A stretch of DNA of 63,427 nucleotides, the filler included. It is 10 parts of 10 records of this genome, joined end to end, with 100 filler letters (N's around TTAATTAATTAA, not from the genome) between each part and the next. Parts side by side here need not be neighbours in the genome. Positions count along the whole stretch, not along the records: positions 17,880 to 25,213 come from SRR31156797_56831; 9 more parts are not named here. One strand, written 5' to 3'. The notes beneath the pieces were generated by a model, which did no database searches, had not been told where the DNA came from, and saw nothing but the letters and a program-made list of their open reading frames with translations. Positions 17,148 through 32,652 of the stretch are shown here, in pieces. The translations under genes were made by a program, and so were the position numbers. Within the stretch, counting starts at the first letter, position 1, and the number at the start of each line of letters is the position of its first letter.

Positions 17148-17585
17148 ATGGCAGATCCGCAGATTCGACTTGAAAAGATGGTTCAAAAACTTCGGGAGCA
17201 CAAATTCAGGATTACGCCCCAGCGTATTGCCGTCATTAAGATCCTGGCTTTGAGCCACGAACACCCGAGCATCGAAATGATCTTTGACCGGATCAAAAAG
17301 GATTTCCCAACCACGAGCCTGGCCACCGTTTACAAGACTGTAACGGTATTAAAAACCCTTGACGAAGTTCTAGAACTGGGATTTCCGGCGGGAGGGAACC
17401 GTTATGATGGCAACAAACCATATTCCCATCCACATGTCATTTGTACCCAATGCAAAAAGATCATGGACCCTGAACTATCCAATTTGGATCATATGACCAG
17501 GGAGCTTGAATCGAAAACGGGATTTGAGATTCTCAATCATCGGATGGACTTCTTTGGAATTTGCCCTGACTGCAAAGACAAATAG
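17148..17585 (+). CDS. Fur-family regulator, PerR-like
   Basis: RITPQR, HPS, SLATVY, H.H..CxxC and CxxC; upstream of katG. Confidence 0.88.
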   Translation: MADPQIRLEKMVQKLREHKFRITPQRIAVIKILALSHEHPSIEMIFDRIKKDFPTTSLATVYKTVTVLKTLDEVLELGFPAGGNRYDGNKPYSHPHVICTQCKKIMDPELSNLDHMTRELESKTGFEILNHRMDFFGICPDCKDK

Positions 17586-17779: not shown

Positions 17780-17880
17780 NNNNNNNNNNNNNNNNNNNNN
17801 NNNNNNNNNNNNNNNNNNNNNNNTTAATTAATTAANNNNNNNNNNNNNNNNNNNNNNNNNNNNNNNNNNNNNNNNNNNNG

Positions 17881-18531
17881 TCATGGGGTTCAGTAGACTA
17901 TAAAAGAATAGTTGTACAAAGAAAAGGTGATAAACAAGGTATTGCCAAAACTGAAAAAGCTTATCATGGAAACATGGTAAACAGGAATCAGAAAGGTCTA
18001 AATGTAGGTTCATATATGGCTAAAAACATCGGTGATTATATGATTAAAAACCTTACAGATGATGGTGAATCAGGTAAAGAGTTTCTTGAGAAGATTGAGA
18101 ATAAAAAACTTTATCTTGCATCAACTAACCTAAATAGACCTATTGAAATACTTAATAAAGATGAAGTTGAAAACTATATTAAAGCTAACTTGTCAGATGA
18201 TAAGTTTATATCTGATTTTGAATTCGAAAACACTTTTATATCTGGAAAAATAAGTAGATATAACTTAAATGGTGTATATGATGCTCAAAAGAAAAGATAT
18301 CAAATGGCTAAACAACGAAGAGAAGTCGAAAAGAAAAAAGAAGTAAGTAAAACACATTCTGTATATGATCCTAAACACTTTTTTGTTGATGTGATTAAAG
18401 GTGATCTACTGTATCGAGACGGAAAAGAAATAATAAAAATAAAAGAATCTGAGTTCGATTACATACTTAAATTAGATATTAAGCAGCAAATAAGAAGCTA
18501 TATAATAGATATGCAAATGTGTTCAAAATAA
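17881..18531 (+). CDS. Rolling-circle replication initiator, C-terminal part (5' truncated)
   Basis: Frame open from contig start: WGSVDYKRI..VGSYMAKNIGDYMIK (motif III YxxK) and KKLYLASTNLNRP, as in HUH phage/plasmid Reps; HUH motif itself not in the contig. Confidence 0.65.
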   Translation, partial: SWGSVDYKRIVVQRKGDKQGIAKTEKAYHGNMVNRNQKGLNVGSYMAKNIGDYMIKNLTDDGESGKEFLEKIENKKLYLASTNLNRPIEILNKDEVENYIKANLSDDKFISDFEFENTFISGKISRYNLNGVYDAQKKRYQMAKQRREVEKKKEVSKTHSVYDPKHFFVDVIKGDLLYRDGKEIIKIKESEFDYILKLDIKQQIRSYIIDMQMCSK

Positions 18532-18549
18532 AGAGGAGTGATTAATAAA

Positions 18550-18828
18550 ATGGCTGAATTTAAAAATCAAGTAAAAGTAGAAGGTATTAAAGTTAAGGAA
18601 TTAAAGAAAACTGATTATGAAGGGACTGAATATTATTCAGTAATCCAAGATGGGGGACTTGCAGAACCTAAATGGAAAACTCATGACTTTATTATTATGG
18701 AAATGAAAAAAGCTGAGATAAGACCAGGGGATATAGTTAATTTAATTTGTGAACTTAATTATCAACCTAAAATCAATGGATTTGCAATAGGTAAAGTAGT
18801 AGGGTTCGAAATCCCTAAAACAAAGTAA
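18550..18828 (+). CDS. Putative ssDNA-binding (OB-fold-like) protein
   Basis: 92 aa, beta-rich, directly after Rep as for inovirus gene V; positional inference. Confidence 0.45.
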   Translation: MAEFKNQVKVEGIKVKELKKTDYEGTEYYSVIQDGGLAEPKWKTHDFIIMEMKKAEIRPGDIVNLICELNYQPKINGFAIGKVVGFEIPKTK

Positions 18829-18881
18829 TGCTAATACTGGTAATGTTGAAGATATTAAATAAATAGATAAGAGGTGTAAGC

Positions 18882-19112
18882 ATGACTGCTGAAAAAGTAA
18901 AAGAGGTTAAACAACAAATATTTAACTTATTGGCTACTGGAATTAATATTCTTGAGAGTAAAGATTTAGAGGGTAAAACTAATGAAGAATTAGAAGATAT
19001 TTTTAATGAAATACTTAAAGCTATTATTCTTAGTGGTGCTGAAAAAGCAGTTGAACTTACACCCAATAAGATTGATGATACAATGTTAAAGTTGTTAAAA
19101 GCTTGTTTTTAG
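18882..19112 (+). CDS. Small helical phage-type protein
   Basis: GAGGTG RBS; TPNKIDD motif recalled from small phage proteins. Confidence 0.55.
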   Translation: MTAEKVKEVKQQIFNLLATGINILESKDLEGKTNEELEDIFNEILKAIILSGAEKAVELTPNKIDDTMLKLLKACF

Positions 19113-19123
19113 GGGCTGATTAA

Positions 19124-20107
19124 ATGAAATATACAGAGAAATTTGATTTTTCAAATGAAGATAATATTCAAAATGTTATTAATGGCTTGACTGTTCATTA
19201 TAAGATACTTGAATTTATTAAAAAAAATTATACAAAAGAAAATATAAGTGATTATAAAGATATTCTAAGATCAATAAGTGAAGGAACTCAAAACATTTAT
19301 AATCTTGGATATAATGATTCAAAAGTTGAAGCAATAATGAAGTTAATCTTTAGTATTTCTATTAATGAATTTGATATTAAGACATTAGCTACTAAAATGC
19401 TTAATTTCCTAAATAGTTATGCTTTTGATATCAATGATACTACAATTGAATTTCCTACTGATCTTGATTCAGCTAATGCACAAATATTGACATTAACTAA
19501 TCAAAATACTCAATTAGAAAGTCAAATGAATGTATCAACTAATGAGGTAGAAAGACTTCAAAATTTAATAGACCAATATGTACAAGGATTAGAAGTATTA
19601 AATAATACTATCAACTTGCCTGATCTGGTTAATGATGCGAATAAAATCCCATTAGTAAAACAAGTTGATTTATTGATTAGCACTCAATTGGCTATGCTAG
19701 TTGGAACTGCACCTGAAAATCTTGATACACTTGGTGAGTTAGCTAATGGATTTGAAAATAATAGTGATGTACTAGCTAATTTAGAAGTTATTGCATCAAA
19801 TAAGCTTGATTCTAGTTTATTTACAAAAGAAGTTATTCAAAATTTGTTTGGTGGAACGTTGTATGGTTTAGGTGGTAATTGTATAGATATTTCTAATCAA
19901 GATGTTAATCAGGATTTAATGTCTGGTTCATATATGGGTTATGGTTTAAGTAATGCACCTTATGAAGATTGGTTTTATTTAGATGTTTTGCGACATAATG
20001 ACAGATATTGTATTCAAAAATTATATAGCTTTCATCAAGATAAATTTTATATTAGACGTCAGGTGAATGGAACTTGGTTTGAATGGCGAAAAATAGGTTT
20101 AATATAA
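19124..20107 (+). CDS. Tail-fibre/receptor-binding-like protein with C-terminal pyocin-knob-like domain
   Basis: Coiled coil, LVGTAPENLDTLGELA fibre motif, C-terminal SG.Y..NAP..WFYLDV..Q..YIR..NGTW.EW. Confidence 0.7.
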   Translation: MKYTEKFDFSNEDNIQNVINGLTVHYKILEFIKKNYTKENISDYKDILRSISEGTQNIYNLGYNDSKVEAIMKLIFSISINEFDIKTLATKMLNFLNSYAFDINDTTIEFPTDLDSANAQILTLTNQNTQLESQMNVSTNEVERLQNLIDQYVQGLEVLNNTINLPDLVNDANKIPLVKQVDLLISTQLAMLVGTAPENLDTLGELANGFENNSDVLANLEVIASNKLDSSLFTKEVIQNLFGGTLYGLGGNCIDISNQDVNQDLMSGSYMGYGLSNAPYEDWFYLDVLRHNDRYCIQKLYSFHQDKFYIRRQVNGTWFEWRKIGLI

Positions 20108-20116
20108 GGTGATTAT

Positions 20117-22015
20117 ATGTCTAGTTTATTAATGGGGATTCAAAGTTTTGATGGTAATTCAGCAGATGCTTTTAAATCTTTTGTAAGTGGTACTATTTCA
20201 AATGTACAATCTGAATTAAGAAAAATTAGTGAAGGTGGATACTTTGCAAATGGATCTGTTATTTTAGGATTTAAATTTTATCAAAATAACGCTTTTCAAT
20301 TTATATTTGAAACAGGTGGTTTGGTAGGTAATGTAAAAGTTATTAATGCAGGTTATATATATAATGTTCATCCTAATTTTTTGGGGTGGCAATCTGATAC
20401 ATATGATCTTGATGATGGTTCAGTGTATAAATTCAACAAATATTCTACTAGTGCACAATATTGTTATTTCAATAGTCCAGTAGAAATAAGTTTTAATGAT
20501 TCATATACTACACCTGATCTTATTATAGAACAAACTCAAGAGGAAATAGATTATGCAAATAATGTAGTTGCTCAGATGCAACAAGCTGAATATCTTAATT
20601 GGCTAAATAATTCGCCATATGTAGCTAATTTAAGAGCACAGGAGAATATTGATCCAACTTTCTATTGGAATGAAGATCATGGAATATCAGATAATACATT
20701 CTGGTATACGTTCGAAACTGGACAATATACTGAGAATGGTTATACTAATATTCAAGAAACACAACCATTTGTACCAAGTTCAGGGGGTGAAACATCAGTG
20801 AGTGGAGATATAACAGTTAAAATGGATTGGGGTACTCCTCCACAAATTCAATTAGCAGGTGGTTCTGCAATATCGCTTGATGTTGGAACAAATAAACTTC
20901 CTCTTGAAATAGGTGATAGTAAATTAGGTATTGATACAACTAATGCTCTAATTGGAATCAGTTCGGATGGGTTAGAGGGTATATCTGTACCTATTAATAT
21001 TCCTGTAGGTACTACATTGGATGTTTCTCCAACAGGTGAAATTAATTTAAATACTGAGGGTGCATATGTAGTTGTTAACACGGATGGTCTAGCAATACCA
21101 ATTGAAAAACCTGCTGGGTTAACACTTCCAGTTGAAGTCGGTACCCAGAAGATAGTATTAGATCATGACTTACCTGCAAATATTTCTGTCACTGATTCAA
21201 TGCCAAATCAGATTACTGTTGTTGATTCTATCCCTAATGAGATAACTGCAAACTTAGATACTTCTAATGCTAGTGTTGACTTGAATACTACTGATAAGTT
21301 TGTTGATCTTGTAACAGATCAGAAGAGTGTTGACCTAAATACTGAGGGTAAACTATTAGAAGTTGACACAAATAATAAGACAGTAGGTATCGACACTACT
21401 AATGCTAGTGTGACACTTGATGGTGAATTAAACCTGACAACTGAAAATTTAAACATAGAAATGTCAGGTGTTGAGAGTAAATTAGCTCAAGTAGTAGAGC
21501 AAATGACAGTAGCTAATGAAAAGAGAAGTTTTGCTAATACAATAAGAGATTTAAGACATCAAAGAGAATATAAAGATGATGGAACAGGTATAAGAGATAT
21601 TGAGAGAAAAAATGCTGAGTTCCAAGATAAAGTAAATAATAGTAAGACAAGTGAAGGTTTAGATAGAGAAGGTAGAGAAAAAGAAGCTTTCGAACAGCAG
21701 TTTAATAAAACTCCGGATGAAACTGGAATGGGAAAAGGACATTTTCTGAGGTTAAAAAATTCAGGTTATTATGTTGGAAATACAGTTAATATGTACAATG
21801 AGTTATATGATTATGAAATTAAAGGTTCAGATGTTAAAAGTGTTACATATATATTTGATCCTCTTAAAATATTAAATGAGCAATTTGGGTTTAAAACAGA
21901 TTATGATAATGATTTAAATGGTGAGTTTGATCAAATAGCAGATATACATAAAAAAACTGTTTCAAGTAATGAAATGGATTCAAAACCAGAAACAGTTGAA
22001 ACTACTCAACAATAG
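20117..22015 (+). CDS. Large structural-like protein with beta-repeat shaft
   Basis: 632 aa; 10-aa and 9-aa tandem repeats followed by a charged helical C-terminus. Confidence 0.55.
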   Translation: MSSLLMGIQSFDGNSADAFKSFVSGTISNVQSELRKISEGGYFANGSVILGFKFYQNNAFQFIFETGGLVGNVKVINAGYIYNVHPNFLGWQSDTYDLDDGSVYKFNKYSTSAQYCYFNSPVEISFNDSYTTPDLIIEQTQEEIDYANNVVAQMQQAEYLNWLNNSPYVANLRAQENIDPTFYWNEDHGISDNTFWYTFETGQYTENGYTNIQETQPFVPSSGGETSVSGDITVKMDWGTPPQIQLAGGSAISLDVGTNKLPLEIGDSKLGIDTTNALIGISSDGLEGISVPINIPVGTTLDVSPTGEINLNTEGAYVVVNTDGLAIPIEKPAGLTLPVEVGTQKIVLDHDLPANISVTDSMPNQITVVDSIPNEITANLDTSNASVDLNTTDKFVDLVTDQKSVDLNTEGKLLEVDTNNKTVGIDTTNASVTLDGELNLTTENLNIEMSGVESKLAQVVEQMTVANEKRSFANTIRDLRHQREYKDDGTGIRDIERKNAEFQDKVNNSKTSEGLDREGREKEAFEQQFNKTPDETGMGKGHFLRLKNSGYYVGNTVNMYNELYDYEIKGSDVKSVTYIFDPLKILNEQFGFKTDYDNDLNGEFDQIADIHKKTVSSNEMDSKPETVETTQQ

Positions 22016-22169
22016 AATGACAATATTTACATTTGGTTGCTTTTTTAGGAATAGTGCTTCTACAGTGAGGACATTTTTTATAAAACAATCTTGATATAAA
22101 ATATATAACTGATACCCATATAATTATCATAGGTAACATTATTATTATTCCTGATAACTCATTATTCAT
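22002..22169 (-). CDS. 55-aa membrane-anchored zinc-ribbon protein (absent from the ORF track)
   Basis: GGAGG RBS; MNNELSGIIIMLPMIIIWVSVIYFISRLFYKKCPHCRSTIPKKATKCKYCHSIVE. Confidence 0.75.
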   Translation of the reverse strand: MNNELSGIIIMLPMIIIWVSVIYFISRLFYKKCPHCRSTIPKKATKCKYCHSIVE

Positions 22170-22233
22170 TTAGTGACCTCCAAGTTTTTATTTTTATTAT
22201 AATTTTTTTTTATCAAAAAGGCAAGGTGAGTTT

Positions 22234-22935
22234 ATGGATCCAATTATTACTCCTACAGTTGGTTATGCTATTTCTGGAATTATTGTAGGTGCTACAAATA
22301 TGATAATTGAATCTGCGATGGATGCAGCACTCGATGTAACTGTTGATTATGTCTCAGAACAATTAGAAAAAGTTTTTCCTGAAATTTCAAATCCAGAGAG
22401 TTTTTGGGGTAAATTTGCAACGAATGTAAAGATGAACGCTAGCGCTCAAATGCAAGCGAGAATAATGAGTCAAGCTATGCAAGTTCAAAATACTGCAACT
22501 GATTACATTGAAGGTTTGAGGAAACAACGAATTGATCAACATAATACTGATTGTAATGAATTAGATCAAAGTAATCCAACTTTTAATGAGTCTGCTTCAT
22601 CTTTAAATATGTTTGAGTATGTGACTTTAAAACCTTTTAGAGATGGATCAATGTTTAATAAAAAATATAGAAATGGTAAAAAAGCTAAGCTAAAAGATGA
22701 TTTAAGTAGAGATTTAGAGAGATATGATAAAGAGTTAAATACATTTAGAGAAACTCGAAATACTGGTTATGGTGAATCTAAAGCATTCAGTAATAGTTTC
22801 GCTGACTATAACCAATCAGCAAATAGTCATATGACTAGTAATGTTAGGAATGCAACTACTATTGATAAGTTGCTTGTTGGAATGGGTTATTATAAAGATA
22901 AAGAAGGTGTATATAAGTTAGGAAGTGCATCGTAA
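22234..22935 (+). CDS. Hypothetical virion protein, DNA-pilot-like
   Basis: Hydrophobic G/A-rich N-terminus then Q/N/A-rich helical region. Confidence 0.4.
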   Translation: MDPIITPTVGYAISGIIVGATNMIIESAMDAALDVTVDYVSEQLEKVFPEISNPESFWGKFATNVKMNASAQMQARIMSQAMQVQNTATDYIEGLRKQRIDQHNTDCNELDQSNPTFNESASSLNMFEYVTLKPFRDGSMFNKKYRNGKKAKLKDDLSRDLERYDKELNTFRETRNTGYGESKAFSNSFADYNQSANSHMTSNVRNATTIDKLLVGMGYYKDKEGVYKLGSAS

Positions 22936-23334
22936 ATGGCTGAATGTAAAGTTACTTATTTAAATGGTGGTGGAGATACTACCATAAGAGATGCTAATTT
23001 TGAGGATGATAATGATGCAATAAATTTTGCTGAATACTATAATGCTGTAAATGATAAAGCTAAGGTTATAAAGATAACTAAGGTTGTTTGTGATTTATCG
23101 AATAAAGATAAAGATTTATTCTTAGGTTCTCAAAATTATACTACAACTGATACTTTAGAGGAAAAATTCCAATATGATGCTCGTATTGATGGTGTCATAG
23201 GCTCATTGTCAGTTAGTATACCGTATTTACCTATAAATATGTCGGATACTAAGAAAAAAGCTCTTGTAGGCTATATGAGAGAGTTTGTTAATTTAGACAC
23301 TGGTACTATTCAGAAGAGTAAAAGATTTAATTAG
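22936..23334 (+). CDS. Hypothetical protein, candidate minor coat protein
   Basis: 132 aa, starts directly after the previous stop; weak resemblance to the next ORF. Confidence 0.4.
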   Translation: MAECKVTYLNGGGDTTIRDANFEDDNDAINFAEYYNAVNDKAKVIKITKVVCDLSNKDKDLFLGSQNYTTTDTLEEKFQYDARIDGVIGSLSVSIPYLPINMSDTKKKALVGYMREFVNLDTGTIQKSKRFN

Positions 23335-23396
23335 TAAGGCTATAGCAAACTTAATATAAATAATAAAAAAAGAGAGAGAAAAAGGAGAGATGCAAA

Positions 23397-23846
23397 ATGG
23401 CATTAGAGAATAACAAACCGCAACCGAAAATTGGAATGAGAAGAGGTAAAACAAATTATGAACAGTTTAAGATGTATGATTCACCTCAGTATTCTAAATC
23501 TAACGGGATTTATATGGATGTAACTAAAGCGCAAATGACTGGTGTTATGGTTAATTTTGATGCTTTATTATACGATCTTAGATTACCGGATGGAACTTCA
23601 CAAACTGATACTTCATTTGTTCCTCAGGCGGATGCTGACATTACAGATTCAGTTAAAAAAGTAATGACAGTAAATTTCACTAATAGTAAATCAGCTAGTA
23701 TTTTTGCACCTTGGATTAAAACAGCTAAAATCGAGGATGTTGTTGATTTCTTAGGACAAGGAACTTGGAAGGATGCAGATGGAACTGCACTTGTAGTTGA
23801 TACTGTTGATTACAAGACTTCAAAATCATTTGCACCTGCTGTATAA
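23397..23846 (+). CDS. Hypothetical protein, candidate major coat protein
   Basis: 149 aa, strong AAAGGAG RBS, double TAA stop, downstream terminator-like hairpin. Confidence 0.4.
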   Translation: MALENNKPQPKIGMRRGKTNYEQFKMYDSPQYSKSNGIYMDVTKAQMTGVMVNFDALLYDLRLPDGTSQTDTSFVPQADADITDSVKKVMTVNFTNSKSASIFAPWIKTAKIEDVVDFLGQGTWKDADGTALVVDTVDYKTSKSFAPAV

Positions 23847-23870
23847 TAGAGTTTTGGTAAATTAAATATT

Positions 23871-23922
23871 AGGCTTGATTAGTCGAACGGCTGTAAAGCT
23901 GTGAGAAAAATCAGGCCTTTTT
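23871..23922 (+). terminator. Stem-loop with inner GNRA hairpin followed by U-tract
   Basis: aggcttgatt pairs with aatcaggcct, then tttt; inner acggct-GTAA-agctgt. Confidence 0.55.
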
Positions 23923-24087
23923 AATTTGTAACCTTTCTTATTTTTACCGGGACAGGACTATCATCCCTTATAAATTATCTTCGAGTAAAAATGAGAATGG
24001 TTAGAGCCGGGCTAGAACCTATTTGATAGATTACCTTTCTTCCCGGGTCCAGGCTTCACACTTACATTAATAAAAAAAGGGGGTCAT

Positions 24088-24456
24088 ATGAAATATTTTT
24101 TTGGTAAAACATCAAACGAACAACTAAAAACATTAGATATTAAACTAGTTATATTATTAAGTTATGCCATAGGTACATCACCTGTAGATTTTACAGTAAA
24201 AGAAGGTTATAGAGCTAAGGACTTGCAAAATAAATATTTTAGAGAAGGAAAATCAAAACTAAAATTTCCTGAATCAACACATAATTTATTACCAAGTTTA
24301 GGGGTAGACTTATACCCAGTGTCAGGAAAAGTGGAAGATTTTTTTATACTATCAACTCATATTAAACAATGTTCTAAGGTTCTTAGAATACCTATTGAAT
24401 GGGGTGGAGATTGGAAAAGTTTTAAAGATCTTCCTCATTATCAGTTGGTGAGATAA
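24088..24456 (+). CDS. Peptidase M15 (L-Ala-D-Glu type) endolysin
   Basis: EGYR..Q..STH..VD..WGGDW..F.D.PH.QL. Confidence 0.88.
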   Translation: MKYFFGKTSNEQLKTLDIKLVILLSYAIGTSPVDFTVKEGYRAKDLQNKYFREGKSKLKFPESTHNLLPSLGVDLYPVSGKVEDFFILSTHIKQCSKVLRIPIEWGGDWKSFKDLPHYQLVR

Positions 24457-24720
24457 ATGGCTAATTGTGATTATAATTGTCCAGAAATGAAAAATCTGGC
24501 AAGTAGGGTAGATAAGTTAGAAGCGAATCAAGTGGAGATTAAAGATACACAAAATAAGTGGATTACTAAAACAGCAGTTCAAGATAATGCTATTCAAACA
24601 TTTAATGAGAATTTCAGAGAGTTAAAAGATGATCTTAAGAAGATCGGATATAAGACAATTGGGTCTGTACTTTTCTTAGTACTAGTACAGATCATGGGAT
24701 TAATATTTATTAAATCTTAA
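24457..24720 (+). CDS. Holin-like (XhlA-type) protein
   Basis: Coiled coil plus a single C-terminal TM helix, directly after the endolysin. Confidence 0.6.
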   Translation: MANCDYNCPEMKNLASRVDKLEANQVEIKDTQNKWITKTAVQDNAIQTFNENFRELKDDLKKIGYKTIGSVLFLVLVQIMGLIFIKS

Positions 24721-24912
24721 ATTATATCATGAAAAAAGAATATTGTATTTAATTAAGCCAAGAATTAAGCTATTTTTTATTATTTAGTTTAAATTTTGGC
24801 TATTTTTATTTAATTTAAGTTTATTTTAACTATTTCACTTGTATATTAAATTCAAGACTTTTTATATGTGATAGCATTTACTTATAAAGTATACAAGGAA
24901 GGGGAAATAGGA

Positions 24913-25213
24913 ATGTTTGAATTAAATAATAGCTTAGAAAAGATGATAATTGAGAGATTTAAACCTGAGATTGAAGAGTTACTTAATACTATCATGTATG
25001 AAGAGAGAGAAATGTTTTTAGAGTGCTATAACACTGTTGGTGATGGCTATAACTCAAGAAAATTGCAGACTACTTTACAATTTAACTTAGAGTTAAAAGT
25101 TCCTAAAGTAAGAGAGTATAGCAAGGATTTGAATTACTCTGTATTCAAGAAATATCAAAGAAAAACAGAAGAATTTGAAAACCTATTTAAGAAAATGTAC
25201 ACATCAAGATTAT
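24913..25213 (+). mobile_element. IS256-family transposase N-terminus (truncated)
   Basis: ERE.FL..GY..R.L.T..LEL.VP.VR..S.F.KYQR pattern. Confidence 0.7.
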
Positions 25214-25567
25214 NNNNNNNNNNNNNNNNNNNNNNNNNNNNNNNNNNNNNNNNNNNNTTAATTAATTAANNNNNNNNNNNNNNNNNNNNNNNNNNNNNNN
25301 NNNNNNNNNNNNNTATAAGAAACTAATTAAAATTTATATAGCTGTATTCTCCTGAAATAATCTATCATTTTCATTAGTCATTATCTTTAGATTTTACTCT
25401 AATGATTTACAGTTCTATTAACGTACTCTCATCCCCTTTTTTTATCATCTCTATAATTATACCTGCTCTTTTTAAGTATTCAAAGAGTAGTCGTTATTTT
25501 TTATATAATTTTAATAATTTTTCTTTATAAAAATACCCCTTTTCTCAATTGAAAAGGGGTAATAACA

Positions 25568-27022
25568 CTAAATTATTTTTAAAAATGCTTTAACTACTTT
25601 CAGGTCAAATTGTGAGCCTGCATTATTTTTCAACTCATTAATAGCATACTCTTTTGCCTGAGCAGATCTATACGGCCTGTCACTAGTCATTGCATCATAT
25701 GCATCCACTACAGCTAGTATTCTTGCTTCAATAGGAGTTTCCTCTCCAATCAATTTATTGGGATATCCACGTCCATCCCATCTCTCATGATGGTGAAGCA
25801 CTATCTTAGCTATATCTACTAATTCCGATGATTTTCTCAGACTTTTATAACCTATAACCGGATGTTCCTTGATACAATTAAACTCATCTTCACTTAACCG
25901 CTCTTTTTTCCTTAGGATATCACCAGGGATTATTGTCTTTCCTATATCATGAACTAAACCTGCATAATAAGTTTTTACTATACTCTCTCTGGATAAATTA
26001 AGCTTCTCAGCTAATTTTTCACTTAGTTCAGCTACATTTTCACTATGATCTTTGGTATACACGTCGTGCTGTTCCAATAGTCCGGATAGTGATATTATTA
26101 TATGATTTGTCAAACTCAACTGTTCTTTTTGATATTTTTTTAACTTCTCAACAGCATGCTCCCTCTCTGTTACATCAGAAAACACTACTGCAAAACTATC
26201 TTTTCTTGGTGAAAATGCCTGACATTCAAAATGTTTATCCATTTCAACTGAATAATTTTTGAAAAACATTGGTTTTCCCGTTTTTGCAACTTCACCGTAA
26301 CTGTCTATCCAATACTGCTCTGTATTGGGCAGTAATTCCTTTACTGTTTTTCCTATTGTTGTTTCTCTCTTTAATCCTGTAACCTTCTCAAAATTAGGAT
26401 TAATATCAACAAATCGATAATCAAGCGCTTTTCCGTCTTCATCATAAATCATATCATGCAGAGCAAAAGCTTCTATCATATTCTCAAATAACTCTTTATA
26501 TTTTCTACTTTTTTTATTCACTTTTAACAATAGATAAATCGTTGTAAATATTGCAAGGAGTAAAACCAGCATAACAATGTTTTTTAATGTATTTAAAGTT
26601 TTGGCAGTTTTTATCTCTTCTGTTACATCTCTAATTGTTGATAATAAAACCTTTTTATTATTATTCTCCATAGGATATGATGTCACATAAACATCTCTTA
26701 CATCTCCATTATGAAGTAGATGCTTAAAATGAAAATAGTTTCTCTTCTCATATTTTGCACTAGACATCTCATTTCTTATTTCACCAACACTTAGGGTATT
26801 TATATCATCTATTGTCATTCCTATTAACTGTGAATATTGATAAAACTTATGCGCTCCGCTACTGGCATTTAATATCTCACCACTAGTTGGCTCAATCATA
26901 AGAAGTATATTCTTTGACGTCACAAAATCATTATCTGAATAGTTCAAGTCAGCAGATAGATTTGAATATATAAAATTGAAAATTAAAAGTAACAAAAAAA
27001 TAGTTCTTTTCATCAGGTTCAA
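25568..27022 (-). CDS. Membrane PAS/HD-GYP c-di-GMP phosphodiesterase
   Basis: HDIGK, HHERWDGRGYP, DAYDAMTS.RPYR; two PAS-like regions and a TM helix. Confidence 0.9.
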   Translation of the reverse strand: MNLMKRTIFLLLLIFNFIYSNLSADLNYSDNDFVTSKNILLMIEPTSGEILNASSGAHKFYQYSQLIGMTIDDINTLSVGEIRNEMSSAKYEKRNYFHFKHLLHNGDVRDVYVTSYPMENNNKKVLLSTIRDVTEEIKTAKTLNTLKNIVMLVLLLAIFTTIYLLLKVNKKSRKYKELFENMIEAFALHDMIYDEDGKALDYRFVDINPNFEKVTGLKRETTIGKTVKELLPNTEQYWIDSYGEVAKTGKPMFFKNYSVEMDKHFECQAFSPRKDSFAVVFSDVTEREHAVEKLKKYQKEQLSLTNHIIISLSGLLEQHDVYTKDHSENVAELSEKLAEKLNLSRESIVKTYYAGLVHDIGKTIIPGDILRKKERLSEDEFNCIKEHPVIGYKSLRKSSELVDIAKIVLHHHERWDGRGYPNKLIGEETPIEARILAVVDAYDAMTSDRPYRSAQAKEYAINELKNNAGSQFDLKVVKAFLKII

Positions 27023-27301
27023 CTCCAGAGTTTTACTTAATTATTCTTGTGTCAATTTGTTTGCAAGTAAGTCAATTATATCCTATTCTCCGTGACAAAT
27101 CAATCATGTATACACTATTTAACATTGATTTTTTTTATGTTTCGCAGTGAATTCCTTTTGTATTCAAACTAATTCTCAATTATGTTAACGAAAGGGATTG
27201 ATTATTAACGCCCTATAGAATTTGATAACGAAATAATTAATATACAAGAGTTTTTCTTAATTTTAACAAAAATAATTAAAACATATAAAATTCTTTAACT
27301 T

Positions 27302-28162
27302 CTATTTATCATAAAAATCTATTACCTCTTTAGCTCGTTTTGTTATAAACTGATTAGGACGATCAACCTGACCTACTGAAACCAGCAAATTACCCAGCTT
27401 CTTTTCCAAATTCCACTCTTTATTAGCAATCTGCTTTGATTTCAGAAGCTCTATTGCAGGAAGCAGTTTATCAGATTTTACCTTTTCTCTCTTTAATATC
27501 CACAATATTTCCAATATATCACTTCTATACATATTGGGAAAAGTTAACTTATCTATCCCTCTAATCATTATTTTATTCTCTTTTCTGGAGCTATAGCAGA
27601 CTTTATGTAATAATATAAAATCTATGCATTTTTCTAATAATTCATTTGCTGCACTATTTCTCAAATGTTTTGGGATAAACGAGATCCCTTTCGCTAATTT
27701 CACGATTCCCCAATAACAGCTATGTTTACCATAACAGCTCTTATTATTACAATATTGATTTTTTTCGTCTATGTATTCACCATCATCAAAACGTTGATTT
27801 TTATTAAAAAATTCAATCACACTATAGGTTCTATCATCAATTTTATTATTAAAATAACTATCAAGATAAATAAGATTCCCATTCAGGCACGGTATAGGGA
27901 AATGATCCTCTTTTAGAGAGTATATCCCCTCTTCAGGGTCAAAAAATTGATCTTTTATTATCTTAAGAGTTTTCTCTACCCTGGGATCATTGTTTGCTAT
28001 CTCCATATCCGTCAGTTGAATGAGTACCCATAATGATGCACGAAAATTTGGCACATAGTGCAGATACTTTGGATAATATTTATGTTTTTCATCAATTTCC
28101 TTCCAACATCCGTTTGAATTTTGATGTTCAAAAATCTTAGCAATTATTTTGTCTCTTTCCAA
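27302..28162 (-). CDS. Hypothetical protein with prenyltransferase/squalene-cyclase-like QxxxGxW repeats
   Basis: HQNSNGCW, NQRFDDG, SCYWG, LTFP..Y.SDILE. Confidence 0.55.
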   Translation of the reverse strand: MERDKIIAKIFEHQNSNGCWKEIDEKHKYYPKYLHYVPNFRASLWVLIQLTDMEIANNDPRVEKTLKIIKDQFFDPEEGIYSLKEDHFPIPCLNGNLIYLDSYFNNKIDDRTYSVIEFFNKNQRFDDGEYIDEKNQYCNNKSCYGKHSCYWGIVKLAKGISFIPKHLRNSAANELLEKCIDFILLHKVCYSSRKENKIMIRGIDKLTFPNMYRSDILEILWILKREKVKSDKLLPAIELLKSKQIANKEWNLEKKLGNLLVSVGQVDRPNQFITKRAKEVIDFYDK

Positions 28163-28432
28163 TTATTATACCTCCCATAAATTCCATACTTATTAAGTAA
28201 AAAATAGTTCAACTTTTTGTGCAATTTACACTTTAATATATTATAATTGTATTGTATGTATATTTTATTCACCATATTTTTCATGAGTCCACGGGACTCT
28301 TCTATGTTTTATTTATTCTATTCCTATCTTTTAATTCCTTTATTTATTAAGGATAACAAAACAATATTTTAACACGGGGATCTTACACAATACAATTTAC
28401 ATAAATAACAAAAAACAGGAGGGGTACAATTT

Positions 28433-31400
28433 ATGCAAAACTTTACAGCACTACTAAGAAAACAGGGTTACAGAAAAGATGTTTCAGCGGGAGATTCATT
28501 ATTTGAGGAGCTACAGTATATTTCAAAGAGGTTTGCAGAAGATAAGGAATTAAAAAAAGAATTAGAAGGTGAAACTGAGTCTGGTTTTATTGAAGGAGAA
28601 ATAGCTATTAAAACCAGTGATGACAAATTAAATATGTTCATTGATATCAAAGGTGGCGAGATAAAAGTATCTAAAACTGACGGAACTAAGAAAAGTAAAG
28701 GGGCAACTGTCATTTTTGGAACTGAAGATGATATCAGAGAGTATATGGAATCAGATTTTGAAACAGAAAACCTAAAATTTTTAGGAACTCAAATTGTTGT
28801 TGAGGATAATCCTGCCCATTTCTCATTTTTTAACTATTTAATCAGTTGTTTACCTGAATATTTTGAGCTAAAAAAAGATTTAATCAAAGAGAGTAAATCA
28901 GAAAATGAAGAGTTTAAATTTGAAATCTCAACTGTAGCAGGAAAACCACAAAGAGGTATGAGAGAGGAAAGATTAAGAAAAAGATCAAAAGAGATGTTGA
29001 ATACTAAAAATACTGATCCGGGAGTTAAATGGTTAGATAAACCATATATTCCTCAATATAACTTGGAAGATTTCCCAAGAGTGGAAAAGTTCAAAAAATC
29101 TTATCTTACTGAAAAGCCATCTTTAAGTGAGGAGCAGGGAGAGCACTTAACTGATTTTTATCTAGAAAATGGTTATTATAACAAAACTAGTGATGATACT
29201 CCTTGGAATCCATTCTTGAGATCAGCAAATGCATTTAGATATCTAATGGATAAAAAGAAACCGCTAATTAGAGAGAATGATCTATTAGCAGGTACTATTA
29301 CAACTGATCCTATGTGCGGATGTATCGCTCAGCCGTATACTGTAGGTTGGAAGTTATGGGGAGATCTAAGAACACTTGAGATAAGAGAGGATGAACCATT
29401 CAAAGTCAGCAAAAGAGCTCTAAATGTACTACATAAAAAAGTATATCCGTTCTGGATGGATAAACATGTAGAAGCTGTATGGAAAACTAAAGTTGGTGAA
29501 GACTCTAAATATCCGGGAATCATTGATAGAAAATCATTTACTATTCCTTGGGGATTATTATCACTTAATCCAGGTTGTCCGGGATTCGGTAAAGTTGTAA
29601 AAAAAGGTCTAAAGGCAATCAGACAGGAGATTAAAGATAAAGTTGCAGAGTTCGAAAATGATACTGCAATGCAAGCTGATGATAAACAGAAAAAAATAGA
29701 TAATCTAAATGCAATGGAGATCACTCTACAGGGTATCTCTATCTATACTCAGCATTTAGCTGAAATGATAGATGCAGAGAGCAAAGAAGCAGAAGGAACT
29801 AGAAAAACCGAACTGGAGAGAATGCATAAAATATTGCTTAGAGTTCCTGATCATCCTGCTGAAACTGTATATGAAGCGATACAGGTTTTATGGATAATGT
29901 TCATTGGTGTAGGACTTGACAGTATGAATGAAACTATGTCAATTGGTAGATTGGATCAGATTCTACAGCCTTATTTTGAAAAAGATATAGAAGCTATCGC
30001 TACAGAGGAGAAAAGAGAGGAGTATATCAAGGAGGTTATTGAATTAACGGCTTGTTTCTTCATGAGAATAACAAGTAACAGATATGCAACTGATACTCAG
30101 TTTACATGGCAACACTCTGGTTCTCCGGCAGATACATCGATAATCATCGGTGGTGTAACTCCTGATGGAGATGACGCTGTAAATGATATGACATATGTTA
30201 TATTAAAAGTTGTAGAGATGTTGAGCACAGATGATCCGGATATGGATGCTAGATATATGCCTGGTGTTAATAGTAAAACTTTCCTAAAGAGAGTTTGTGA
30301 CGTTAATTACCTAACTTGTGGTACTCCTGCTATTCATAATGATAGTGCAATAATCGGTGGATGGATGAAAAATAATCCTGATTGGGATATTAGAGATATG
30401 AGAGACTGGGTACCTTGCGGTTGTGTAGAACCGGTTATCTCAGGTAAACATTTCGCTGCACCTGCTGATCTGGACAGTAATTTCACTGTGTCTCTGGAGC
30501 TTGCACTAAATAATGGTAGACATCCTAAATGGGATAATACTGTTCACGATAATAAAATAGGCCCTGATACAGGAGAAGTTGAAAGTTTCAAAACATTTGA
30601 TGAGTTCTTTGATGCATTTGAAGCACAGTTCCAAAATTACTTCACCGGAGCAATCAAAGATGTATCTTTCCAAATAGCTGAAGCTCAAAAAGAAGCTATG
30701 CCGGCACCACTGTATTCAGCTCTATTGGAGGGTTGTATAGAGAATGCAGGCGGTATGCTTGACGGAGCCGTTAAATATAATACTGCATCTTCTTCACTTA
30801 TCGGTTTCTCTGACGTTGTTGACTCACTGCTTGTTATCAAGCAATTAGTATTCGATGAGGAGAAATTTAGTTTCAGAGAGTTAAAAGATGCTGTTGATAA
30901 TAACTTTGAAGCAAAAACAGATAGAAAACTATATGCTTCTATCAGACACTCTGTTAATAAATTCGGCTCTGGTCATACAGAGGGTAGAAAGATGGCAAAC
31001 AGAGTAACAAAAATGGTAGGTGATTTCTTCCATTCAAAAACTAACCCTAGAGGCGGACACTATACATCAGGATACAAAACTACCAGTAGTCATACTGCAT
31101 TTGGAATGGTTGCAGGTGCTCTGCCATCAGGAAGAAGAGCCAGAATGCCGTTTACACCTGGATTAACACCGAGCCCGCAGGCTACTAAAAATATACTAGA
31201 TAATCTAATTGATGTAGCGAGTTTAGACTCATCTACATGTGAGAATAGTTTTGCATTTAACGTAAGATTATCATTCTCTAAACATAATAGTTATGAAGAA
31301 AATATCGATCTGGTAACACATTATGTAGAAACATACTGTAGAAAAGGTGGTATGCAGATACAGCTTAATATGGTTGACTCAGATACACTAATTGACGCTA

Positions 31401-31522
31401 TGGCAAATCCTCAGTATTACCCTGATCTAATGGTTAGAATCTCAGGATATACAGGTTTTTATACTAGGATGCAGAGAGAGCTGCAATTAGAAGTATTAGG
31501 GAGGACAGAGTTTGCACTTTAA
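28433..31522 (+). CDS. Glycyl-radical enzyme (non-PFL type) with N-terminal SCP2-like extension
   Basis: Cys loop CGCVEP, Gly loop LMVRISGY, SIGRLDQ, GALPSGR; extra N-terminal region of roughly 200 aa. Confidence 0.88.
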   Translation: MQNFTALLRKQGYRKDVSAGDSLFEELQYISKRFAEDKELKKELEGETESGFIEGEIAIKTSDDKLNMFIDIKGGEIKVSKTDGTKKSKGATVIFGTEDDIREYMESDFETENLKFLGTQIVVEDNPAHFSFFNYLISCLPEYFELKKDLIKESKSENEEFKFEISTVAGKPQRGMREERLRKRSKEMLNTKNTDPGVKWLDKPYIPQYNLEDFPRVEKFKKSYLTEKPSLSEEQGEHLTDFYLENGYYNKTSDDTPWNPFLRSANAFRYLMDKKKPLIRENDLLAGTITTDPMCGCIAQPYTVGWKLWGDLRTLEIREDEPFKVSKRALNVLHKKVYPFWMDKHVEAVWKTKVGEDSKYPGIIDRKSFTIPWGLLSLNPGCPGFGKVVKKGLKAIRQEIKDKVAEFENDTAMQADDKQKKIDNLNAMEITLQGISIYTQHLAEMIDAESKEAEGTRKTELERMHKILLRVPDHPAETVYEAIQVLWIMFIGVGLDSMNETMSIGRLDQILQPYFEKDIEAIATEEKREEYIKEVIELTACFFMRITSNRYATDTQFTWQHSGSPADTSIIIGGVTPDGDDAVNDMTYVILKVVEMLSTDDPDMDARYMPGVNSKTFLKRVCDVNYLTCGTPAIHNDSAIIGGWMKNNPDWDIRDMRDWVPCGCVEPVISGKHFAAPADLDSNFTVSLELALNNGRHPKWDNTVHDNKIGPDTGEVESFKTFDEFFDAFEAQFQNYFTGAIKDVSFQIAEAQKEAMPAPLYSALLEGCIENAGGMLDGAVKYNTASSSLIGFSDVVDSLLVIKQLVFDEEKFSFRELKDAVDNNFEAKTDRKLYASIRHSVNKFGSGHTEGRKMANRVTKMVGDFFHSKTNPRGGHYTSGYKTTSSHTAFGMVAGALPSGRRARMPFTPGLTPSPQATKNILDNLIDVASLDSSTCENSFAFNVRLSFSKHNSYEENIDLVTHYVETYCRKGGMQIQLNMVDSDTLIDAMANPQYYPDLMVRISGYTGFYTRMQRELQLEVLGRTEFAL

Positions 31523-32468
31523 GAATTCACAAGTTTATAATTTCCCAATACATAAAGAGTCTTTAATTTTTAATATAAAAGGTAACTCTCTTGAAGACGG
31601 GCCCGGTATTCGTACCGTGCTCTTCTTCAAGGGTTGTCCCCTTGATTGCACATGGTGTCACAATCCTGAAGGCAAAAGTTTCTTAGCTGATTTAATGCTT
31701 GAACTAGATAACTGTGTAACATGTGAAGAGTGCCTGGATATCTGCCCGGAATCAGCTATAAAATTAAATGAAAATATTGAAATAAACAGAGAGAAATGTA
31801 TTAAATGCTTCAAATGCGCAGATGTTTGTCCTTCAAATGCTCTGCAAAAATGTGGTAAAAGTATAGATGAGAAAAAAATAATAGAGATGATTCTCAAATA
31901 TAAAGAGTTTTATGGTACTGAAGGAGGAGTAACTTTTTCAGGTGGAGAGGTTTTGCAACATATAGATGCTATCGCCCCGTTAGTTAAAAAATTAAAAGAA
32001 GAGAATATTCATATACTTATTGAAACTTCCGGTTTTTTTAATTATGAAAAATTCGAATCACAAATATTACCATATACAGATATGATATACTATGATATTA
32101 AACTTATCGATAGTGATGAACATCAGAAATATTGCGGTGTAGATAATAAATTAATATTAGATAATTTTATTAAACTTAATAATGCAAAGATTAATAATAA
32201 TAGTTTTGAAATATTGCCCAGAACACCTTTAATTCCTGATATTACTGACACGGAGAAAAATATAGATAATATTATCTCTTTTTATAAAAAGCTGAATATT
32301 AACAAAACATCACTTCTGCCAAATAACCCTGTTTGGTTTGATAAGAATAATAGCTTGGGATTAAAAAACAGTTTTGAAAATAATATTGATATGAATAAAT
32401 TATACAACGAGGATAAATTGGATAAAATAGTTAAAAAATTTCACGAAAATAGAATTAAAATTATATAA
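31512..32468 (+). CDS. GRE-activating radical SAM enzyme with ferredoxin insert
   Basis: EDGPGIRT, GCPLDCTWCHNPE, two CxxCxxCxxxCP, GGVTFSGGE. Confidence 0.93.
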   Translation: MHFKNSQVYNFPIHKESLIFNIKGNSLEDGPGIRTVLFFKGCPLDCTWCHNPEGKSFLADLMLELDNCVTCEECLDICPESAIKLNENIEINREKCIKCFKCADVCPSNALQKCGKSIDEKKIIEMILKYKEFYGTEGGVTFSGGEVLQHIDAIAPLVKKLKEENIHILIETSGFFNYEKFESQILPYTDMIYYDIKLIDSDEHQKYCGVDNKLILDNFIKLNNAKINNNSFEILPRTPLIPDITDTEKNIDNIISFYKKLNINKTSLLPNNPVWFDKNNSLGLKNSFENNIDMNKLYNEDKLDKIVKKFHENRIKII

Positions 32469-32507
32469 TTGTAATAATCTGCAAAAATAAACCACTAAAT
32501 ACAAAAT

Positions 32508-32542
32508 ATAGGACGTATATCTATACGTCCCTACAGTAGGGG
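32508..32542. repeat. REP-like palindrome
   Basis: taggacgtata-tc-tatacgtccctac followed by gtagggg. Confidence 0.4.
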
Positions 32543-32652
32543 TTTATTGATANNNNNNNNNNNNNNNNNNNNNNNNNNNNNNNNNNNNNNNNNNNNTTAA
32601 TTAATTAANNNNNNNNNNNNNNNNNNNNNNNNNNNNNNNNNNNNNNNNNNNN

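Follow-up and report, generated by a model that had tools for sequence, protein, structure and literature searches.

A 7.3-kb metagenomic fragment points to a probable new family of integrating, rolling-circle phage-like elements in Fusobacteriaceae-type bacteria

The 63,427-base window analyzed here, i.e., the whole stretch of DNA under study, contains in its fourth contig (positions 17880-25213; 7,334 bp, 29.7% G+C) a compact gene cluster that we attribute, with moderate confidence, to a new family of temperate, transposase-integrating, rolling-circle phage-like elements. The window would hold a 7.3-kb fragment of an element of ~9-12 kb. Its hosts are probably Fusobacteriaceae-type bacteria, judging from its relatives and nucleotide composition. 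Beyond this, we infer that virions are formed, that their genome is single-stranded DNA (ssDNA), that the window's own copy is complete and active, and which roles are played by open reading frame (ORF) 2 and by ORF5-8.

The window is made of ten contigs of 5.1-7.3 kb joined by spacers (44 N, a 12-nt linker, and again 44 N), so that any feature seeming to cross a spacer is an artifact. Since the G+C content of the contigs runs from 30% to 64%, the window represents a mixed metagenome. A 7,334-bp contig identical to the fourth one, but for a single T>C difference at window position 21852, is present with a depth of 99 in one public sequencing run, the only one to contain the sequence and possibly its source. 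Its left end overlaps a 43-nt piece (depth 288) and its right end a 103-nt piece (depth 198). Because both ends abut short pieces of higher depth, they are branch points of the assembly graph, in sequence common to other copies, and not the ends of the element. An original prediction, made from the sequence of the window, had described an element of ~6.8 kb; this is not a whole element but part of a contig cut at both ends. The ten co-directional plus-strand ORFs that it described do exist, with the lengths it gave (185/216, 96, 76, 327, 632, 233, 132, 149, 122, and 87 aa) and with tight spacing, and they are preceded by good ribosome-binding sites. Two further genes had been missed, a minus-strand zinc-ribbon gene and a fragment of an IS256-family transposase gene. 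The features of the contig are as follows.

17881-18531, plus strand: ORF1, C-terminal 216 aa assigned to an HUH rolling-circle replication initiator (Rep); open 5' end, cut by the left end of the contig
18538-18828, plus strand: ORF2, 92-96 aa, putative replication accessory protein
18882-19112, plus strand: ORF3, 76 aa, acidic; matches phrog_402 (unknown function, E = 4.8e-6)
19124-20107, plus strand: ORF4, 327 aa, fibre-like, with a coiled coil and a C-terminal knob; weak fibre matches
20117-22015, plus strand: ORF5, 632 aa, acidic repeat protein with internal repeats; the large core protein
22002-22169, minus strand: 55-aa protein with an N-terminal transmembrane (TM) helix and a zinc ribbon; matches phrog_8032 (E = 1e-6)
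22234-22935, plus strand: ORF6, 233 aa, core protein with a weakly hydrophobic N terminus and a long polar helical part
22936-23334, plus strand: ORF7, 132 aa, core protein, with homologues in relatives
23397-23846, plus strand: ORF8, 149 aa, core protein; N-terminal arm basic, modeled fold alpha/beta; candidate structural protein
23847-24087, no strand: structured, G+C-richer noncoding spacer, opening with a terminator-like hairpin after ORF8
24088-24456, plus strand: ORF9, 122 aa, predicted M15-family peptidoglycan peptidase (endolysin)
24457-24720, plus strand: ORF10, 87 aa, predicted XhlA-like lysis membrane protein
24868-25213, plus strand: N-terminal ~100-115 aa of an IS256/Mutator-family DDE transposase, cut by the right end of the contig

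This arrangement recurs in other Fusobacteriota. When 131 genomes of the family of a Fusobacteriaceae metagenome-assembled genome (MAG) were searched, ORF5 was matched in one and ORF6 in five. An ORF6 profile run over 190 Fusobacteriota genomes gave a match in five, four of which hold five clear elements, the fifth match (G130) being weak. One genome contains two copies, elements A (L016) and B (L017), and another contains C (L018). D (L019) makes up a whole contig of 8,973 bp whose first and last 141 bases are identical, so that it is a circle of 8,832 bp, and E (L027) is cut by the start of its contig. The match of the single ORF6 sequence in G009 is a 74-aa frame with five stops, the locus of the ORF6 match in G092 encodes no element protein detectable by BLASTP, and G001, the incomplete genome with the closest Rep, has no match to ORF4, ORF5, ORF6, or ORF8, which says little.

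The family is characterized by a common order: Rep, ORF2, a variable block, the ORF5 homologue, the minus-strand zinc-ribbon gene, ORF6, ORF7, and ORF8, followed in A, C, and E by a full-length IS256-family transposase gene on the same strand. The shared core thus comprises Rep and the small ORF2, a repeat protein of ~630 aa, a membrane protein with a zinc ribbon, and ORF6-8. At the protein level, the window element is distant from A, with BLASTP identities of 23% for Rep, 35% for ORF2, 25% for ORF5, 24% for ORF6, 39% for ORF7, 29% for ORF8, and 37% for the transposase (the window fragment compared with the full-length protein of A at the same position). Elements A and B are closer, with 84% nucleotide identity, confined to 6.4 kb of core, and with different Reps. 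Because the ratio of nonsynonymous to synonymous substitution rates (dN/dS) between A and B is 0.13-0.42 in all seven genes tested, the core genes are working genes under purifying selection.

Two of the relatives could be delimited precisely in the chromosome. Element A is inserted between cdsA and dxr, two genes that are adjacent in a sister species and thus mark an empty site. Alignment of the occupied and empty sites gives a unit of ~9,729 bp flanked by a 7-8-bp direct duplication (CGTCACG). For C, an empty site in a sister genome gives a unit of 12,099 bp with a 6-bp duplication (CTTGAG). In both cases, the mobile unit extends from upstream of Rep to just past the transposase gene. Relatives A and C are therefore in a temperate state, which, for relatives, bears out the suggestion of the original prediction that the element is possibly temperate. 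The ends of A are 26-bp imperfect terminal inverted repeats (17/26 positions match) and those of C are 23-bp inverted repeats (14/23), with an inner GTGTC block common to both; ungapped scans for inverted repeats around the elements and the transposase genes found none. The target of A is the tip of a palindrome inside an ~80-bp intergenic repeat (L016 7989-8068) that is present in many copies per genome in this genus (G121-G131), while C is inserted in the loop of a terminator-like hairpin. Since both mapped insertions sit in intergenic hairpin loops, this suggests that the transposase targets such loops.

The transposase gene is the last gene, on the same strand as the core, in four of the six elements (the window element, A, C, and E). 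The window fragment matches Pfam Transposase_mut (E = 6.7e-6; 25.7 bits, cutoff 21) and NCBIfam IS256 (E = 1.5e-6), and the full-length proteins of A and C match the latter with E = 1e-18 and 7e-22, respectively. Since their scores of 67-78 bits are below the equivalog cutoff of 150 of NCBIfam, these transposases are best regarded as distant relatives of IS256. Pairwise identity among the transposases of the four elements is only 27-37% over full-length alignments, so that the transposase has diverged along with the elements. The IS256 fragment at the right edge of the contig is most likely the element's own integration gene, and the assembly break at this edge is probably due to it. This gene, overlooked by the original prediction, is the most distinctive part of the element. 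In B, a XerC/D-like tyrosine recombinase is found where A has its transposase.

As for replication, no stop codon is found upstream of the first ORF, and its 216 aa correspond to the C-terminal part of a Rep of ~500 aa. Of the three HUH Rep motifs, only motif III, of the YxxK type (YMAKNIGDYMIK), falls on the window fragment, motifs I (FxTxTF-like) and II (HUH) lying beyond the contig end. The fragment by itself has no family match in Pfam or PHROGs, and its neighbors in a protein language model (Rep_1, Phage_GPA, and REP_ORF2-G2P) are no more than a lead. When 1.84 billion representative proteins were searched in full with HMMER, two matches were obtained. One (P0004; 2,087 aa) consists of 20 short stretches. 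The other, P0003, is a 504-aa protein that is 55% identical to the fragment (E = 9e-47), which aligns with its residues 304-498, and it displays the motifs FFTGTF, HYHVL, and YMAKSIGDYMIK. P0003 scores 27.7 bits against Pfam REP_ORF2-G2P (E = 3e-6), 0.1 below the cutoff of 27.8, and matches phrog_3419 "rolling circle DNA replication initiation" with E = 1.6e-5. With the same Pfam family, the Reps of A and D score 32.1 and 26.6 bits, respectively. A second full-length homologue with all three HUH motifs is encoded on L001, a 1,868-bp contig of a Fusobacteriaceae MAG, where it is followed by an ORF2 homologue. Because a full-length homologue of 55% identity carries the HUH motifs, we assign the first ORF to the HUH Rep family. 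The original prediction had named a lack of HUH homology in this ORF as a refutation, and homologues do carry FxTxTF, HxH, and YxxK; it was right about the identity of the rolling-circle Rep, of which only the C-terminal 216 aa are present.

The HUH core of Rep is 23-35% identical to Reps of small plasmids (eight records; E = 4e-9 to 1e-3). These plasmids, of 1.5-8.5 kb, come from Fusobacterium (two), Clostridium, Geobacillus, and Bacillus. A PDB sequence search with the Rep profile gave nothing. A 239-aa Rep of the same HUH family (FITLTF, HYHVIM, YVSKYLVK) is also found on a separate 3.2-kb contig (L003; G125:C186), where it adjoins a second initiator-like ORF; this contig probably represents a small plasmid of the rolling-circle type from a Fusobacteriaceae species.

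ORF2 has homologues directly after Rep on L001 and in A, B, C, and D. [quoted passage not shown] It may be an ssDNA-binding or replication accessory protein.

The endolysin identified by the original prediction is confirmed by matches of ORF9 to phrog_465 (E = 1e-29) and Pfam Peptidase_M15_4 (25.4 bits, cutoff 25). ORF10, which matches phrog_1193 (E = 7e-4), had been named a holin. It is indeed a predicted lysis membrane protein, but an XhlA-like one, with a coiled coil and one C-terminal TM segment (residues 65-87). In C, the lysis set consists of a small TM protein and an M15 endolysin that is 33% identical to ORF9, and it is placed elsewhere, after ORF2. In A, B, and D, the set is also found after ORF2 and consists of a DUF1353 protein and a 61-75-aa TM protein; DUF1353 was shown to be a phospholipase A2 family and is common in prophages (PMC11525133). 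A lytic enzyme is thus paired with a small membrane protein in all five elements for which the left half is available. Because two unrelated kinds of lytic enzyme occur at different places, the lysis genes look like exchangeable phage lysis cassettes. The view that they are borrowed fits this variable presence and position.

Between ORF8 and the lysis genes of the window lies the noncoding spacer, whose predicted DNA fold is more stable than that of shuffled sequences on the plus strand (z = -3.64, with 0 of 200 shuffles as good) and less markedly so on the minus strand (z = -1.72). It has no Rfam match, nor is its sequence conserved in the corresponding spacers of A, B, C, and E. The spacers at the same place in relatives are equally long and can be wrongly called as ORFs of 67-68 aa. 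The spacer could be a terminator plus a lysis promoter, or a single-strand origin.

ORF2, ORF5, ORF6, ORF7, and ORF8 have no match among functionally annotated families in Pfam, PHROGs, or NCBIfam, and ORF3 matches phrog_402 only. Homologues of ORF5, of 473-718 aa and ~24-29% identity, are found in A, B, C, and D, and the internal repeats described by the original prediction are present, the center of the protein being a variable repeat region. ORF5 has no match in Pfam, PHROGs, PDB, or Atlas. Its acidity and variable repeat center fit a candidate spike or adsorption protein. ORF6 has homologues in all five relatives. ORF7 is 30-39% identical to its counterparts in A, B, and C, and its similarity to that of E is weaker, only 40 residues aligning (E = 1.5e-5). 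No signal peptides or clear TM anchors were found in ORF5-8, except for hydrophobic N termini on two ORF5 homologues. The zinc-ribbon gene has a GGAGG ribosome-binding site and counterparts at the same position in A, B, and C.

ORF8 was the one core protein to be modeled, ORF5 being tested for a jelly roll at the sequence level. An ORF8 profile built from six family members retrieved 11 proteins among 5.8 billion clusters, two of which are copies of E. With a 15-sequence alignment, AlphaFold2 produced a model of eight strands and two helices with a predicted local distance difference test score (pLDDT) of 78.5 and a predicted template modeling score (pTM) of 0.75, compared with a pLDDT of 43.5 from the single sequence. 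Foldseek searches of PDB with this model found nothing (best E = 0.25), including no capsid fold represented there. Searches of BFVD gave weak matches (E = 0.03-0.4; TM-score 0.36-0.46) to unnamed proteins of 170-214 aa. Possible paralogy was also considered. It is unsupported by hhalign both for ORF7 and ORF8 (probability 1.1%) and for three small proteins of D (probability 0.14%), which show no link to ORF7 or ORF8.

In the variable block, ORF3 has no counterpart in A and B. ORF4 was described by the original prediction as a tail-fibre/knob protein, for which we find weak support, namely matches to PHROG tail and tail-fibre families (E = 1e-5 to 1e-2) and to the upper fibre gp68 of phage 80alpha (E = 0.015). 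Since it is seen in the window element only, with no homologue in A and B, the two relatives compared directly, ORF4 is accessory. In element C, three minus-strand ORFs (83, 90, and 124 aa) lie between Rep and ORF2 (L018 3162-4177). They have no counterpart in the other elements, and the 124-aa one has a signal-peptide-like N terminus. These may be moron or regulatory genes.

Hallmark genes of known phages were looked for throughout. Pfam and PHROG scans covering all ORFs of at least 60 aa in A, C, and D recognized Rep, DUF1353, M15, and the transposase and nothing else. No terminase, portal, or HK97 capsid gene was found in the fourth contig or in the relatives whose limits are set by circularity (8.8 kb) or by empty sites (9.7 and 12.1 kb). 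The ORFs of this contig and those of A, C, and D give no Phage_F match at E <= 0.01 (a sequence-level test), no Zot/pI match, and no double-jelly-roll match by Pfam or PHROGs. The expectation that relatives would lack these genes thus held. So did the statement that no real ORF contains a Walker A motif, since a six-frame regular-expression search of the six elements found it only in the ORF5-like repeat protein of D and in one 32-aa frame. Small hydrophobic coat-protein candidates, beyond the lysis-associated proteins, are also absent from the six elements.

Apart from 48-65-nt matches in the endolysin gene, the whole contig shows no similarity to 50,697 phage records, and tblastn with ORF1, ORF5, and ORF8 against phages found none. 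The same was true of ORF6 of A against 72,556 plasmid records and against phages, of a scan of JGI metagenomes with the Rep alignment, of word-indexed searches with single ORF5 and ORF8 sequences, and of PDB sequence searches with ORF5 and ORF8. No description of such elements was found in the open-access full-text literature.

Together, these findings are consistent with the following life cycle. The element would sit in the chromosome, the whole unit from Rep to transposase having been inserted, between imperfect terminal inverted repeats, by its own distant IS256-family DDE transposase, a role that the tyrosine recombinase in the equivalent position may take in B. It would leave as a circle, and rolling-circle copying would be started by the HUH Rep, probably aided by ORF2. 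The orphan module, composed of the spike-like ORF5, ORF6, ORF7, and ORF8, would then be expressed and build a small virion. Because no packaging ATPase is present, we propose that DNA loading proceeds as in microviruses, with Rep-driven replication coupled to packaging. Escape would be by lysis with an exchangeable set, here the M15 endolysin and the XhlA-like membrane protein, and elsewhere in the family the DUF1353 phospholipase and a small membrane protein.

We put forward, much more tentatively, a bolder version of this reading. The elements might be small phages of Fusobacteriaceae, both lytic and temperate, that form a new family or possibly a higher taxon and whose 9-12-kb rolling-circle, probably single-stranded genome doubles as a transposon that inserts into hairpin loops by means of an IS256-like transposase. 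Their virion might be composed of the small alpha/beta proteins ORF7 and ORF8, an ORF5 spike, and ORF6, with no known capsid fold and with ATPase-free packaging.

Several points weigh against a phage-like nature of the family. No capsid protein was identified, and particle formation, an ssDNA genome, and expression are putative. The ORF8 model is neither a jelly roll nor an HK97 fold, and as it matches nothing solved, a structural (capsid) role for ORF8 is a guess. The window copy lacks both ends and is known only as a fragment, and the circular relative D has no detectable ORF7 or ORF8 homologues and no integration gene. In B and C, the proteins in the position of Rep (492 aa, L017 12906-14384; 488 aa, L018 1516-2982), which are 37% identical to each other, belong to no family in Pfam, PHROGs, or NCBIfam and show no visible HUH motifs. 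They are of a different, unclassified family, and this may reflect a swap of the replication module to an unclassified initiator. The terminal inverted repeats of A do not stand out from shuffled sequences in gapped local alignment (score 43, compared with 32 +/- 4.6 and a maximum of 46), so that the repeats alone are unconvincing and it is the empty-site junctions that fix the ends. Finally, IMG/VR scans with ORF5, ORF1, ORF8, ORF6, P0003, and the Rep alignment found no relative, and virus-calling pipelines have therefore not picked up this family.

Since capsid, particle, and ssDNA are a matter of inference, a non-viral transposon-plasmid hybrid remains a serious rival, although we consider it unlikely. 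The elements would be integrative rolling-circle plasmids or large IS256-type transposons that make no virions. ORF5-8 would act in the cell or at its surface, for example in adhesion or competition, and the lytic enzymes would be used for autolysis, DNA release, or bacteriocin-like release. Small cryptic plasmids indeed have the Reps closest to the Rep core, the unit shows every hallmark of a transposon (inverted repeats, target duplication, and DDE transposase), and neither the ORF8 model searches nor IMG/VR revealed a capsid fold or a viral relative. However, the constant pairing of a lytic enzyme with a small membrane protein, in two types and at varying positions, is typical of phages, and the window element also carries a phage-type fibre protein. 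Moreover, the near absence of signal peptides and TM anchors from ORF5-8 does not suit a surface function, and packed co-directional genes with Rep directly upstream are found in small ssDNA phages.

A phage satellite that has its own genes for Rep, receptor binding, and lysis but relies on the capsid of a helper phage for packaging is in our opinion improbable. Small size, chromosomal integration, an accessory fibre-like ORF4, and the lack of recognized capsid or packaging genes would all suit a satellite. On the other hand, no terS, capsid-size redirector, or helper-sensing repressor was recognized, and four or five orphan genes under purifying selection exceed what a satellite needs. Own lysis genes, moreover, are unusual for known satellites.

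We give even less credit to very divergent members of Microviridae, Tubulavirales, Finnlakeviridae, or Corticoviridae whose hallmarks have drifted beyond sequence profiles. The Pfam family matched by Rep takes its name from the ORF2 protein of plectroviruses and the gII protein of inoviruses. The large protein, ORF6 with its hydrophobic N terminus, and the small proteins of the elements follow one another in a way reminiscent of capsid, pilot, and scaffold in microviruses, and the unnamed proteins that best match the ORF8 model in BFVD, albeit weakly, could be read in the same sense. Against such a drift speak the lack of any Phage_F, Zot, or double-jelly-roll match in the elements, of a Walker A motif in a plausible gene, of further small hydrophobic coat candidates, and of a jelly-roll match for the ORF8 model. 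The center of ORF5 is a variable repeat, which is unlike a capsid protein, and plectroviruses and inoviruses extrude without lysis (PMC8295915).

Chance juxtaposition of the fibre/lysis end of a tailed prophage with an unrelated Rep gene and an IS copy is hardly credible. The contig is cut at both ends, and tailed prophages of low-G+C hosts typically have fibre, endolysin, and XhlA-like genes at their right end, but the order of Rep, ORF5-8, and transposase recurs in elements that are 23-39% identical at the protein level. The relatives with known limits (two of 9.7 and 12.1 kb, bounded by empty sites, and a closed circle of 8.8 kb) contain no tailed-phage genes and effectively exclude a tailed-prophage fragment.

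The closest known parallel to a phage-like family of this kind is provided by the Spiroplasma plectroviruses of the genus Vespertiliovirus (Plectroviridae, SpV1 group), which have circular genomes of up to 8.3 kb, a low-G+C host, a transposase, and many chromosomal copies, and which are described as packaging a circular intermediate of transposition (PMC8295915). In vespertilioviruses a transposase takes the place of Rep, and plectroviruses have wall-less hosts, a maturation protein, and release by extrusion without lysis (PMC8295915). The elements described here are likewise small, one of them (D) being a circle, with a transposase in four of the six and a low-G+C host, and their Rep matches REP_ORF2-G2P. 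In contrast to Vespertiliovirus, the family has both a Rep and a transposase, and in contrast to Plectroviridae, it has genes for an endolysin or a phospholipase and lacks a Walker A ATPase, the sequence similarity being confined to Rep. From Tubulavirales in general it is set apart by the lack of a pI/Zot-type ATPase and by lysis genes in place of extrusion.

Microviridae (Gokushovirinae and Alpavirinae, prophage forms included) are small, have packed co-directional genes, an HUH Rep, and no packaging ATPase, and include temperate members; dedicated endolysins are unusual among them. The elements differ from them by the lack of a Phage_F match, by the variable repeat center of ORF5, and by a size of 8.8-12 kb, which exceeds that of microvirus genomes. 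We know of no report of a microvirus prophage using a DDE transposase, and a literature search found none. Finnlakeviridae (FLiP) and Corticoviridae (PM2) have genomes of 9-10 kb, a rolling-circle Rep, a lytic enzyme, and vertex spike proteins, but their double-jelly-roll capsid, several membrane proteins, and (in corticoviruses) ATPase were not found here.

Among nonviral elements, the IS256 family, whose namesake moves through circular intermediates, is similar in its related DDE transposase and, for A and C, in the imperfect inverted repeats of ~23-26 bp at the ends and in short duplications of the target. It differs in that the unit here is 9.7-12 kb long and contains Rep, lysis genes, and a conserved orphan module; in addition, B has a tyrosine recombinase instead and D neither. 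Small rolling-circle plasmids of Fusobacterium, Clostridium, and Bacillus share the HUH core, but the Rep of the elements, extended at both its N and C termini, is roughly double the length of theirs, and ORF6 has no match among plasmids.

Small nontailed phages are badly undersampled, and their detection relies on few hallmark genes, none of which is found in this family. The elements sit in genomes of Fusobacteriaceae, a group of medical interest for which, to our knowledge, few phages are known, all of them tailed. If particles form, ORF5-8 would define a new virion type, and the combination of a plasmid-like Rep, an IS256-like integrase, and exchangeable lysis genes would represent a new route from plasmid and transposon to virus. 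Should the bolder version hold, the bacterial virosphere would gain a capsid architecture that is new to it, and the Spiroplasma plectroviruses would be joined by a second, independent case of a small phage whose genome doubles as a transposition intermediate. Even without particles, the case would be an unusual one, with a 10-kb unit that joins rolling-circle replication to DDE transposition into hairpin loops. Such elements bear on the origin of ssDNA viruses from plasmids, the theme of PMC6668415. Profiles of ORF6 and ORF8 can be used as markers for further members.

As for the rest of the window, scans of the element contig with Rfam and for tRNAs, promoters, and terminators gave nothing informative. 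The contig to its right (25314-32552) correlates with it in tetranucleotide composition (r = 0.95). It has genes for a PAS-HD-GYP protein, for a glycyl-radical enzyme resembling pyruvate formate-lyase, and for the activase of this enzyme; this gene content is that of an ordinary anaerobe chromosome, and the contig was rejected as a part of the element. The contig to its left contains an ORF for a Fur/PerR-like regulator (17148-17585), followed (to 17779) by the start of an ORF resembling the N terminus of the catalase-peroxidase KatG; both were recognized by eye and are unrelated to the element.

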